From: an uncultured Candidatus Rokubacteria bacterium
Lineage (GTDB): Bacteria > Methylomirabilota > Methylomirabilia > Rokubacteriales > CSP1-6
DNA: 64,000 nucleotides
Assembly (NCBI GenBank): GCA_963771355.1
Contig: CAVYTA010000006.1
Coordinates: 832,001 to 896,000, forward strand
Reading direction: 5' to 3'
Shown here: piece by piece, positions 15,624-24,888 of the stretch
Position numbering within the stretch: position 1 is the first letter of the stretch
Layout: each line of letters opens with the position of its first letter
The notes under the pieces: generated by a model
The model's database searches: none
Told to the model about the DNA's origin: nothing
Seen by the model: the letters and a program-made list of their open reading frames with translations, nothing else
Made by a program: the position numbers and the translations under genes

Positions 15624-16040
15624 TCAAGGCTCGGTGGGATAGCCCTGGGCGATCCACCCGGGCAGCCCTTCATCGAGGATGAGCATGTTGCGGTAGCCGG
15701 CGGCGTAAAGGACGCGGTAGGCCCCCCGGGCCAGCTCGTGGGGGCACGCTCAGTAGAGGAGGACGAAGTCCTGACGCGAGACCTCGTCGATCCGTCGCGG
15801 TAGCTCCCGGAGTGGAAGGTTCCGCGCGCCTCGGATGCGCCGCTCCTCGAACTCCTCGCGCACGCGGACGTCGACGAAGCGCACGGCCTTCTTGAGATCG
15901 ACGAGGGACTTCGCCTCGGCCACCGACATGTAGCGCTCGGGCACGGCCGGATCCCCGGCGGGCGCGGCGCCCAGACCGAGCAGCGCCAGGCCGACCATGC
16001 CCGCCAGCGCCGCGCGCGGGAGGAGGGCCCGCGGGGTCAT
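15624..16040 (-). CDS. exported rhodanese-domain protein, probable selenoprotein (U-x-C)
   Basis: Signal peptide, then FVDVR..IRGARNLP..VLLY-TGA(15752-15750)-ACPHELARGAYRVLYAAGYRNMLILDEGLPGWIAQGYPTEP. The TGA occupies the rhodanese active-site Cys and the frame continues through the C-terminal G...W motif. Confidence 0.8.
15720..15732 (-). promoter_or_regulatory. candidate bacterial SECIS hairpin
   Basis: GGCCC-GGG-GGGCC starting 17 nt after the UGA, with G in the apical loop. Confidence 0.45.
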
Positions 16041-21485: not shown

Positions 21486-23783
21486 CTAGTCGCCCAGGTC
21501 CAGCGAGGCCTGGACGGGCAAGTCAGGCGCCCCGTCGGGATCCTCGCTCACCACGATGAGGCCGTCACTCTCCGCGAAGGGCAGGAACTTCGCGGCGAGC
21601 TCGCGGAGCTTGGTCAGATAGTAGGCGGTGTTCTCGTCGGGGGCGGACGGGTCCCAGGCCGCCGCCAGCTTCGCCGTCTCGTTGACCTTGACGCGGTCGG
21701 TCTCGCCCGTCACGTAGTACGAAACCTGGTCTCCGGCCTGATAGGGCCGCTCCGCGCGGAGCGCCAGCTCGTAGGCGGCGCCCGCATTACGCCTGCCGGT
21801 GGCGAGCTTTTCGCGGTAAGCGGCCGGCGACTCCTGCAGCGTCTCGGTCTTCATGAAGAGACGCACCGCCACCCGGCGGGCGGTGAAGTCCTCCTCCCAG
21901 CGGCGCACCAGGGCCGGAATCTCCTCGCGGCGGCCGGTGAGCAGCAGGCGGAACATCTCCTCCATCCAGCGGCGCTGGAAGAGCTCGATGCCGCGTGAGC
22001 GGAGCCCGGACCCCTTGACGAGCAGCTTGCCGTGGCCATCGAGGAGCACGTAGTTCTTCATCTTGTAGCTGAACATGGCGGGGTAACGTCCAGCCAGCTC
22101 GAGCTGAATGCCCTCCGGCAGCGGCTCGCCCAGAGCGGCGAGCAGCGCGTCCTCGTCGCCGGGCCCGGCCACCGGTACCGCCGGCACGAAGTAGAGCCCG
22201 TCGGTGTCCACCTCGATCACGGTGGCCCCGAGGGTATCGAGCCGCTCGACCAGGCTCAGCACCAGCCGGCGGCCCTCGGCGGTGATGCGGTTGGCGGCGT
22301 CGAAATCGTTCCAGTGGGAGAAGCCGGTGCCGAGGTAACCGTAGAAGGAGTTGATGAAGATCTTGAAGGTCTGCTGGAGCGCGTTCAGGAGCAGCCGGTC
22401 CGCGGGCGCCTCCGCCTCGCGGGCGAGCCGCTTGGCCGCGATCCGGAACTCGCGGAGGTCCTGCAGCATGGTGCTGAAGATGCCCAGCCGGTCCGAAGCG
22501 GGAGCGAGGCCCTGAGTCAGCATGAGCGAGGGGTAGAGCGACGTGACGTCCACGTGGAGGACGTCCTTCGCCACGCCCTGGCGGTACACCGCCGTATGGC
22601 CACCCGCCACCCCACGCCCCGCCATGGCGCGCGGCACCGCGTGGCCGCGGTGCAGATACTCGCGCAGGAGGAGGGCATCGATCTTGGTCGCGTTGCCCCG
22701 GAGCACCACCGATTCGTAGTCGAAGGGCAGGGCCTGGGCCTGAACGAAATAGGGAGGCGAGAGGATGCCGGACAGCGCCAGCGTCTCCAGCACGTCGTCG
22801 CGGGCATAGGCCATGAGCCGGGCCGGGTCCTCGCGGAACGCGCGCGGGATGTCCTCCGGCGGGAGATAGGTGCGATCCGGTGCCGCCACCCCGAAGTGAC
22901 GGGCCATGTCCTTGAGCCCGAAGGAGTCCAGGTCGCGCGCGGCCACATCGTAGAGCTGGCCCAGCATCCATGTGTCCACGATGTGGCGGCCGGCCACGCC
23001 GTACCGCCGGTACGCGATGCTCCGCTCCGCCACCTGCATGCGGGACGGGTAGCCCCGCAGGGTAGACCCGTCCCGCCCCCAGGTAAGCGGCACTCGGTGG
23101 CGCCGGGCGCGGGCCTCGAGATATTCCAGATCGAAACGGAAGATGTTGTGGCCCTCGAGCACGTCGGGGTCGCGCTCCGCGATCAGCCGCGTGCACTCGC
23201 GCAGCAGCGCCGCCTCGTCCATCTCCGCCCCCGACAGCACCGTGCTCCAGCCGGTGGAGTCGGCCAGCGCGATGGCGATGATGCGGTCGACCTCGCGGAC
23301 CGCGTTGGGAAACTCGAAGCCGGGCGCGGTGAGCACCTCGATGTCCAGCGCCATGCGGCGGAGATCGGTCAGCGCCATACCGCGGAACGACGTCCGGCCG
23401 GTGCGCAGGAGGTACTGGTGCACCGGGTCGGAGAGAAAGAGATAGGGCCCCTGCGGATCCCCCGCGGTCCGGCCGGTGAGCTTGCGCAGATGGTCGCGCG
23501 CGAGCGCGCCCGCGCTCCAGGCCGGGAAGACCGCGAGCCAGCGGTAGGCGCCGTCGCCCTCGAGCGGCGTCACCTCCACGTCGCCCTTGAAGCCGGCCAG
23601 GAGGTCCGGGTCGTCGAGCAGGAGGAAGGGGCGGAAGGGCTCCTCCGTGGCTACCACCTGGCCCGCGCGGCGAGCATAGGCCCGCACCGTGCTCTCGCCG
23701 GGGACGAAGGCGAGGAGGCCGGGCGTCTCGTCCCGACCGAAGAGCAGGGGATTGCCGTAGAACGGGAGGGGGATCGACGTCAA
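21486..23783 (-). CDS. polB: family B DNA polymerase with 3'-5' exonuclease
   Basis: ExoI DIEV, ExoII HNIFRFD, ExoIII YARDD; polymerase motifs DVTSLYPS, KIFINSFYG and DTDG; TTG start overlaps the TPR stop. Confidence 0.9.
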   Translation of the reverse strand: MTSIPLPFYGNPLLFGRDETPGLLAFVPGESTVRAYARRAGQVVATEEPFRPFLLLDDPDLLAGFKGDVEVTPLEGDGAYRWLAVFPAWSAGALARDHLRKLTGRTAGDPQGPYLFLSDPVHQYLLRTGRTSFRGMALTDLRRMALDIEVLTAPGFEFPNAVREVDRIIAIALADSTGWSTVLSGAEMDEAALLRECTRLIAERDPDVLEGHNIFRFDLEYLEARARRHRVPLTWGRDGSTLRGYPSRMQVAERSIAYRRYGVAGRHIVDTWMLGQLYDVAARDLDSFGLKDMARHFGVAAPDRTYLPPEDIPRAFREDPARLMAYARDDVLETLALSGILSPPYFVQAQALPFDYESVVLRGNATKIDALLLREYLHRGHAVPRAMAGRGVAGGHTAVYRQGVAKDVLHVDVTSLYPSLMLTQGLAPASDRLGIFSTMLQDLREFRIAAKRLAREAEAPADRLLLNALQQTFKIFINSFYGYLGTGFSHWNDFDAANRITAEGRRLVLSLVERLDTLGATVIEVDTDGLYFVPAVPVAGPGDEDALLAALGEPLPEGIQLELAGRYPAMFSYKMKNYVLLDGHGKLLVKGSGLRSRGIELFQRRWMEEMFRLLLTGRREEIPALVRRWEEDFTARRVAVRLFMKTETLQESPAAYREKLATGRRNAGAAYELALRAERPYQAGDQVSYYVTGETDRVKVNETAKLAAAWDPSAPDENTAYYLTKLRELAAKFLPFAESDGLIVVSEDPDGAPDLPVQASLDLGD

Positions 23784-24274
23784 TTCAGCATGCCCAGATG
23801 GCGCTGCAGGCGCTCGATCTCCCGCCGCGCGATGGCGTAGCGCGGCTCGATGCCCAGGGCTCGGCGCAGCTCGGCGATGGCCTCCCGGAGCCGGTTCTGC
23901 TTCACATAGACGCGGGCGAGGTTGAAGTAGGGGAAGTGCCGAGGCTCGTAGCGGGGGGCGGTCTTGGCGCGCTCGAGCCAGTCGATCGCCTCCTCGTGGC
24001 GTCCCAGCTCGATGAGGTAGGCGCCGATGTCGTTGTAGGGATTGCCGAAGGAAGGATCCACGCTGATGGCGGTCTTGCATTCGGCGATGGCGTCCTCGTG
24101 GCGCCCCTGGAAGGACAGCGCCCAGCCCAGGAAGGTATGCGCCTCGGCGGTGGGCTGGGCGGCGATGGACCGCCGGTAGCTCTCCACCGCCTCATCGAGA
24201 CGGCCGGCCATCTGATGCGTGTAGCCCGCTTCGAAGTGGGCCTGCGCGGCATCGCGCTCGTCGCCGCCGCTCAT
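23780..24274 (-). CDS. tetratricopeptide repeat protein
   Basis: AEAHTFLGWALS, NPYNDIGAYL and YFNLARVY repeats. Confidence 0.88.
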   Translation of the reverse strand: MSGGDERDAAQAHFEAGYTHQMAGRLDEAVESYRRSIAAQPTAEAHTFLGWALSFQGRHEDAIAECKTAISVDPSFGNPYNDIGAYLIELGRHEEAIDWLERAKTAPRYEPRHFPYFNLARVYVKQNRLREAIAELRRALGIEPRYAIARREIERLQRHLGMLN

Positions 24275-24888
24275 GGCGGCGCGGGCCGGCCGGCCTCGAT
24301 GGCCTTGCGGTAGGCGGCGAGCTCGGTAAGGCCGGTGAGACGCGGCCCACCGTCCACGATCACGGTGGGGATGGCCCGGATCTGGTGGCGCTGTACGGCT
24401 TCGCGATAGTCCTCGATGACGGGCGCGCGGCCCACCCCGGCTTCGAAGTCGGCGATGAACTGCCCCATGTCGGCCCCGGAGGCCTCGACGACGGGGTAGA
24501 GCTCGGCGGGGTCCGCGATGTTCACGCTCTCCGAGAAGAAGGCCGCGTAGAGCTCGAGGTGCAGCCGCTCGAAGACCTCCGGACCCTGCCGGGCCGCGCA
24601 CTTGGCGGCCTCCAGCGCCGGCATCGACCAGGCGGGAAACTCGTGGCGCGGCCAGGGCGTGAAGCGAAGGCCGTCGCCCTCGGACATGGCCTGGCACCGT
24701 CGCCAGCCCTCCTCACGCCGGGTGCCCTTGAATCGCGCGTCGGGATCGGGCTCCGGGCGCAGGGGAAATGCTCGCCACTCGATCACCAGATCGTCGCCCA
24801 TCTCGTCCTTGAGCCGCCGGAGGCGCACCGCCGCCGGATAACACCAGGGTCAGAGATAGTCGGAGTACTCGATGATGTGCACGGCCAT
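24271..24888 (-). CDS. DsbA/FrnE-family thioredoxin-fold protein, probable selenoprotein (UPWC)
   Basis: SD AGGAGG, then MAVHIIEYSDYL-TGA(24852-24850)-PWCY..WRAFPLRP..IPT. The TGA replaces the first Cys of the CPWC motif. Confidence 0.88.
24817..24837 (-). promoter_or_regulatory. candidate bacterial SECIS hairpin
   Basis: CCGGCGGCG-GUG-CGCCUCCGG starting 12 nt after the UGA; one C-U mismatch; GU in the loop. Confidence 0.6.

Follow-up and report, generated by a model that had tools for sequence, protein, structure and literature searches.

The window analysed here is a stretch of 64,000 nucleotides from an uncultured Candidatus Rokubacteria bacterium (GCA_963771355.1, contig CAVYTA010000006.1, positions 832,001 to 896,000). 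On its minus strand lies a gene for a 205-residue protein of the DsbA/FrnE type that is interrupted at codon 13 by an in-frame TGA. The table-11 open reading frame (ORF) list splits the gene at this point and shows only the downstream part, 24271..24828, as 185 codons with a GTG start. Read with TGA as selenocysteine (Sec, U), the locus has the following features:

24900-24895, minus strand: Shine-Dalgarno sequence AGGAGG, read from the sequence, with a 6-nt spacer to the start codon
24888-24886, minus strand: start codon ATG, read from the sequence
24271..24888, minus strand: full coding sequence of the predicted FrnE/DsbA-like selenoprotein, translated with TGA as U; 205 codons and a terminal TGA
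24850..24852, minus strand: in-frame TGA, codon 13, predicted selenocysteine and first residue of U-P-W-C; aligns with the first Cys of the FrnE CPWC motif and of Cys-type homologs
24841..24843, minus strand: codon 16 (TGT), resolving Cys of UPWC, invariant in 27/27 alignment rows
24817..24837, minus strand: predicted selenocysteine insertion sequence (SECIS) hairpin of 21 nt, CCGGCGGCGGUGCGCCUCCGG, with 4 bp on either side of a C.U mismatch and a GUG loop in the computed fold
24826..24828, minus strand: GTG (Val21) in the hairpin loop, the false start of the 185-aa protein in gene calls, from the ORF list
24367..24369, minus strand: codon of Pro174, a proline that never varies in the alignment and precedes strand beta3 (the cis-Pro loop in thioredoxin folds), position computed from the frame
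24273-24271, minus strand: terminal stop TGA; the frame is open from codon 13 to here

The encoded N-terminus comprises 12 sense codons, MAVHIIEYSDYL, followed by the TGA and then by PWCY, in which CCC TGG TGT encodes P-W-C. The original prediction for this locus, made from the letters and their open reading frames, had proposed a strong Shine-Dalgarno sequence ahead of an ATG at 24888, a TGA in place of the attacking cysteine of the motif, and a gene split in the ORF track. Each of these elements is borne out on the minus strand: the ribosome-binding site and start codon lie where they were placed, the TGA and PWCY are in frame with ATG 24888, and the listed ORF begins at the downstream GTG. 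We consider it very likely (probability roughly 0.93) that the UGA at codon 13 is decoded as selenocysteine and that the gene at 24888-24271 produces a DsbA/FrnE-type protein with a U-P-W-C active site.

The read-through product matches the Pfam DSBA family (PF01323) with 73.4 bits against a gathering cut-off of 25.6 (E 2.7e-20). The match covers residues 5-197 of the protein and positions 2-190 of the 191 in the profile, and thus spans the TGA. An AlphaFold2 model built on a 27-row alignment (pLDDT 94.4, pTM 0.90) orders the chain as strand beta1 (3-9), the loop carrying U13, a helix (16-33), strand beta2 (34-40) and a helical insert (57-167), followed after P174 by beta3 (175-178), beta4 (183-185) and a last helix. 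As modelled, the architecture is that of DsbA, a thioredoxin fold with a helical insert, and U13 is predicted to sit at the N-terminal end of helix 1, the site of the nucleophilic cysteine in CXXC proteins. P174, invariant in the alignment, immediately precedes the modelled strand 175-178. Only two residues stand ahead of strand beta1, which the chain enters directly; by this chain start in the model, rather than by a signal-peptide predictor, the protein appears to be signal-less.

Structural and sequence comparisons converge on FrnE. The best Foldseek matches in the PDB are Deinococcus radiodurans FrnE (5cp1 and 5xwh; TMq 0.82), a Nitrosomonas protein (2in3) and Streptomyces SCO1869 (3gl5), and FrnE is also the top PDB match by sequence (phmmer, E 6.4e-5), its CPWC aligned over UPWC. 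A search of NCBIfam returned no family above its cut-off; the best, NF041057 (Rcas_1661 family thioredoxin-like (seleno)lipoprotein), reached 43.5 bits against 190 and covered the C-terminal half only. No Cys-bearing C-terminal tail is present in the 27-row alignment, where the protein ends in ...IEAGRPAPP and a single terminal Cys occurs only in L040 and P0074. Two other cysteines, C65 (RRC, about 24696-24694) and C97 (AAKC, about 24600-24598; both minus strand), lie in the helical insert and are retained in nearly all Sec-type orthologs; they are not found in the Cys-type homologs P0124-P0129.

The TGA is conserved together with the peptide around it. Each of the 24 matches at E<1e-60 among 41 related genomes contains a TGA, and in 20 orthologous loci that were fetched, the window's own included, it occupies the identical codon without exception, in the context x[IVL]x[EAVI][YF][SAG]DYL-TGA-PWC[YF]PAAVRL. 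An in-frame start codon, ATG or GTG, precedes the TGA by 10-15 codons in every one of the 20 loci. Across the nine codons before the TGA, nucleotide entropy is higher at the third position (0.77) than at the first (0.53) or second (0.44). The 12 residues ahead of the TGA, to which the original prediction had looked as a test, are therefore conserved, with the strand and an upstream start retained in 20/20 loci.

Conservation extends through the phylum. In a sample of 201 evenly drawn genomes, 120 contain a match at E<=1e-20. At E<=2e-49 there are, by our count, 94 rows, of which 92 contain a TGA; residue 13 lies outside the other two, whose matches open at query residue 43 or 52, one of them being split across contigs. 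In a more distant tier of 32-43% identity, TGA-containing matches are mixed with eight full-length matches free of stops, which we take to be Cys-type paralogs.

Cysteine counterparts of the selenocysteine site are also seen among homologs. P0124, P0125, P0127, P0128 and P0129 are Cys-type homologs with a complete N-terminus and the sequence YSDYLCPWC, and D-x-x-C-P-[WFY]-C occurs in 54 of the 150 best library representatives. Together with the CPWC of FrnE, these proteins supply the Cys/Sec pairing that had been proposed as a check. Public entries for the orthogroup look different at this end: 118 of the 120 listed matches cover only 73-90% of the query, most are 171-185 aa long, and NCBI names them 'DsbA family protein'. 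About 25 of the 150 representatives begin, by our reading, no more than two residues from the position just after the TGA, and the database proteins P0003 and P0005 begin with MRLRRL and VRLRRL. These lengths and starts show a systematic removal of the N-terminus by gene callers. The mis-annotation is uniform across databases because the GTG that callers choose as start forms the predicted SECIS hairpin's apical loop.

The original prediction placed a hairpin with a GUG loop at 24837-24817, 12 nt after the UGA. Its coordinates and fold stand; its stability is not significant against shuffled sequences. The hairpin has a computed energy of -12.7 kcal/mol, and its loop starts 21 nt past the UGA. 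All 20 orthologous loci repeat the consensus CCGGCGGC[G/C]GU[G/C/U]CGCCUCCGG, with no change in the upper stem, the C.U mismatch or the loop GU; three of them show an altered outer stem.

The peptide encoded by the hairpin, PAAVRLR, is conserved in itself, and codon use was therefore compared over all 46 alignment columns of the 20 sequences that hold a conserved four- or sixfold degenerate residue. Codon entropy is zero in only four of these columns, P18 (CCG), A19 (GCG), R22 (CGC) and L23 (CTC), and each of the four belongs to the stem. Variation is seen in the loop codons, A20 being GCG in nine sequences and GCC in 11, and V21 being GTG in 12, GTC in five and GTT in three. The entropy (H) is 0.49 for R24 and at least 0.57 for all columns outside the hairpin. 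Synonymous variation is thus absent exactly at the stem, as is expected where an RNA element is functional, and this pattern points to a constrained SECIS element.

Three other lines were tried on the hairpin and set aside. Thermodynamic stability was rejected as evidence: the 21-mer has a z-score of -1.53 and is equalled or bettered by 10 of 200 shuffles. Covariation proved unusable, the upper stem and loop GU being invariant and the outer-stem changes in three loci single-sided. The bSECIS model, as given in PMC13188914, asks for a loop of 3-9 nt with G as its first or second nucleotide, an upper stem of 4-16 bp, a distance of 16-37 nt from the UGA and a minimum free energy <= -7.5 kcal/mol. 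The window hairpin falls within all of these limits with its GUG loop, 4-bp upper stem, 21-nt spacing and -12.7 kcal/mol, as do the hairpins of 26 of the 29 candidate selenoprotein genes of the genome described below. The model is a weak discriminator in GC-rich DNA, passing 5 of 11 negatives against 26 of 29 positives, and was rejected in that role.

The genome encodes the machinery that Sec decoding requires. A tRNA-Sec scores 69.1 bits against a cut-off of 47 and is called tRNA-SeC with anticodon TCA by ARAGORN. Profile searches find selA (555 bits), selB (367 bits) and selD (266 bits), all above curated cut-offs. The selA and selB genes are adjacent and lie a few kilobases from the tRNA-Sec, all within about 5 kb (G000:C7:111447-116386); selD is on another contig (C4:225335-226252), and no in-frame stop is reported in it. 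Thus tRNA-Sec and selB, the two components that the original prediction had named, are both present, along with selA and selD. TGA also functions as a stop in this genome of 69.8% GC: it is the commonest stop of long ORFs (810 of 1,383) and terminates the selenoprotein gene itself.

The gene does not stand alone. When the genome was scanned with a codon log-odds score, 170 in-frame TGA candidates emerged; this score replaced a filter on GC content at third codon positions (GC3), which was too unspecific and missed the target gene. Thirty-eight candidates picked by eye, a paralog of the target and a rhodanese gene in the window made up a set of 40 that was run against Pfam. In 28 of the 40, an above-cut-off Pfam domain spans the TGA, which with the target makes 29 genes. 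By family, the 28 comprise 11 AhpC/TSA-Redoxin, five CMD/AhpD, five UGSC, two DSBA and two Rhodanese genes, with one each of Thioredoxin_3, Rdx and OsmC. One ArsC-like candidate is marginal, and 11 of the 40 are two adjacent genes in one frame and not read-through genes. The scan is crude and incomplete, having missed the paralog (G000:C6:282240-282860), and it demanded at least six codons after the TGA, so that genes with a C-terminal Sec escape by design; the true selenoproteome probably exceeds 29 genes.

Three of these genes are described further. The paralog (L081) is a FrnE-like DSBA gene with IFSDYV-U-PWC and 30% identity. The second DSBA gene (L067, G000:C6:1429117-1429719) bears a signal peptide and reads EFSDYQ-U-PFC; its best NCBIfam match, NF041057, scores 118.7 bits, below the 190 required. 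The third, in the window at 15627-16040 (minus strand), encodes a secreted rhodanese-domain protein with a TGA at 15752-15750 in its active-site loop, VLLY-U-ACPHE, and its Pfam match (residues 40-131) spans the TGA at residue 97. This last gene is real and lies 9.1 kb from the DsbA-like gene; it is the first UGA gene of the original prediction, which placed the two about 9 kb apart. The wider claim, that the organism decodes Sec and has an under-annotated selenoproteome, agrees with the Sec machinery and with the 28 further genes, which the suggested genome scan, crude as it is, brought to light.

From these findings we propose the following course of events. Translation would begin at ATG 24888. 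At the UGA (24852-24850), SelB carrying Sec-tRNA(Sec) would bind the hairpin at 24837-24817 through the invariant loop G-U, and the selenocysteine it delivers would compete with release factor 2. The finished protein would be a cytoplasmic thiol-disulfide oxidoreductase of the FrnE kind, either a reductase or an isomerase. Its nucleophile towards substrate disulfides would be Sec13, at the N-terminal end of helix 1, and the mixed selenenylsulfide would then be resolved by Cys16.

Several points weigh against selenocysteine at codon 13, or against parts of this proposal. Longer stretches around the hairpin fold no better than shuffles (z -0.59 for 71 nt, +0.99 for 43 nt), and with no compensatory changes the hairpin structure is argued from synonymous-site constraint, not from covariation. 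Five of the 11 control TGA stops between adjacent genes also pass the bSECIS criteria. Since the stability of the hairpin does not exceed chance, the case rests on comparative evidence, in which the position of the TGA was checked by eye in 20 loci only and elsewhere is the tool's count of stops inside the match. One database homolog, P0074 (206 aa), reads YSDYL-R-PWC, with arginine in place of Sec; either a single base would have changed, TGA to CGA, making this a redox-dead variant, or it is a sequencing error. The proposed catalytic role and substrates follow from family membership. Finally, the case for selenium incorporation is an indirect one, made from sequence.

How, then, might the TGA otherwise be explained? 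Nearly all database entries are called as though it were a true stop (118 of the 120 listed matches, at 73-90% coverage). The protein would then have 185 aa if started at GTG 24828, or 176 aa if started at the ATG of Met30, with the upstream 12 codons a leader or non-coding. Such a product would have lost strand beta1, the entire CXXC motif and the beginning of helix 1, leaving a thioredoxin fold that could not be redox-active. The Pfam DSBA match begins at residue 5, ahead of the TGA; the nine codons upstream are kept at the protein level with synonymous changes in 20/20 loci; and the strong Shine-Dalgarno sequence precedes ATG 24888, not GTG 24828. We therefore regard termination at codon 13 as very improbable. 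The observation that the frame stays open does not by itself single out selenocysteine, as Sec-free read-through would have the same effect. A near-cognate tRNA might insert Cys or Trp, or the code might be reassigned, and the inserted residue is a prediction from the DNA. Against a reassigned or leaky UGA stand its use as the terminator of 810 of 1,383 long ORFs and of the selenoprotein gene itself, the complete Sec system in the genome, and a constrained hairpin at SECIS distance past the UGA. In addition, where TGA occurs in frame in this genome, the site corresponds to a redox Cys of known selenoprotein families. Insertion of another amino acid is, in our judgement, a shade less probable even than a true stop.

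Least probable of all is a pseudogene or assembly error, in which a TGY cysteine codon was mutated to or misread as TGA. The two differ by a single base (TGC or TGT against TGA), and Cys-type homologs do exist. The same TGA, however, recurs in 20/20 examined loci of different genomes; by our count, a TGA lies inside all 92 ortholog-level matches of the phylum sample that cover residue 13, and the remaining frame is intact and under purifying selection. Conservation effectively refutes this explanation. Selenocysteine insertion at codon 13 is thus the reading that we carry into the comparison with known systems.

The claim that DsbA-like UxxC selenoproteins exist agrees with the literature. Such proteins (COG2761) were described from the Sargasso Sea metagenome in 2005, with nine sequences and predicted SECIS elements (PMC1088965), and a 2026 catalogue of prokaryotic selenoproteins lists a 'DsbA-like protein form 1' with PF01323 and UxxC (PMC13188914). 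The window protein has the same Pfam domain, the same UxxC motif with Sec for the first Cys, and a predicted SECIS just downstream of the UGA, a likeness drawn from the published description of the family. It differs in belonging to an orthogroup of the Rokubacteria-type (Methylomirabilota) lineage that is Sec-type in every site-covering match of our sample and has no curated NCBIfam model.

D. radiodurans FrnE (5cnw, 5cp1, 5xwh), a cytoplasmic disulfide oxidoreductase of DsbA fold, is the best match in both sequence and structure and shares the topology of a signal-less thioredoxin fold with a helical insert. Identity is only 22-23%, however, and the window protein has Sec for the first Cys and 205 aa against 260. 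It also lacks the Cys-containing C-terminal tail of FrnE, which presumably carries a functional CxxxxC. We take COG2761 to be the FrnE COG. Periplasmic DsbA of the E. coli type has in common the DSBA Pfam domain, a CXXC-type motif and the cis-Pro loop, and many periplasmic DsbA structures appear among the Foldseek matches at lower scores (TMq 0.54-0.64). The window protein differs from these in being signal-less, with strand beta1 from residue 3, and in having PW rather than PH within its motif. By Foldseek it stands nearer to the branch of FrnE, HCCA-isomerase and kappa-GST than to periplasmic DsbA.

The predicted insertion system resembles that of E. coli fdhF in that genes for SelA, SelB, SelC and SelD are all present in the genome and that the hairpin lies within the coding region, immediately 3' of the UGA, with G-U in a small apical loop. 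The fdhF SECIS has a bulged U, a GGUC loop and a spacing of 11 nt. The window stem has a conserved C.U mismatch, and the loop of its orthologs is 3-5 nt long, reading GUG, GUC or GUU and, when the closing pair is missing, CGUGC. Its 21-nt loop spacing fits the 16-37 nt of the general bacterial model, and it is by this model, rather than by fdhF itself, that the likeness to fdhF claimed in the original prediction was judged.

We regard the locus as holding a genuine, strongly conserved gene for a predicted selenoprotein of an already known family, and its novelty as low. What is known of Sec decoding and of DsbA-like selenoproteins is unchanged by it. Its main value is for annotation, in that a putative redox-active enzyme is restored to the predicted proteome in place of 'DsbA family' fragments without an active site. 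The invariant hairpin offers a clean, lineage-specific candidate SECIS for training selenoprotein finders on high-GC genomes. The gene also contributes to the view that Methylomirabilota, a phylum already reported to be rich in selenoproteins, has a very large selenoproteome: one metagenome-assembled genome is predicted to have 63 selenoprotein genes, a figure that PMC13188914 attributes to Deng et al. 2026, Cell Rep. A more ambitious interpretation, which we think unlikely, would make the orthogroup a distinct, obligately selenium-dependent branch of FrnE-like proteins that lacks a family model, with Sec fixed and the SECIS near-frozen across the class-level diversity of a Rokubacteria-type phylum. 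On that interpretation, C65 and C97 might form a second redox site, and linkage to a family-B DNA polymerase (PolB) gene might hint at a redox role in protecting or repairing replication proteins, not in general disulfide exchange.

The genes around the selenoprotein gene are ordered similarly among relatives. Its immediate downstream neighbour is:

23783..24274, minus strand: TPR protein of 164 aa, with Pfam TPR_2, TPR_8 and TPR_1 matches

The ATG of the TPR gene (24274-24272) overlaps the selenoprotein stop as ATGA (24274-24271), and because of this overlap the two genes are likely co-transcribed. The PolB gene lies past the TPR gene, in the region 21489-24274 of the window (minus strand), and a dienelactone hydrolase gene is divergent and upstream. 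The DNA polymerase stands beside the selenoprotein gene in 13 of the 20 loci, whether or not the small TPR gene intervenes, and the hydrolase in nine. We read this neighbourhood as a gene order that relatives have kept and do not count it as evidence of function. The database also lists P0126 (347 aa), probably a chimeric or frameshifted call, in which a DsbA-like N-terminal part, with C printed where Sec is expected, continues as the exonuclease domain of a PolB.

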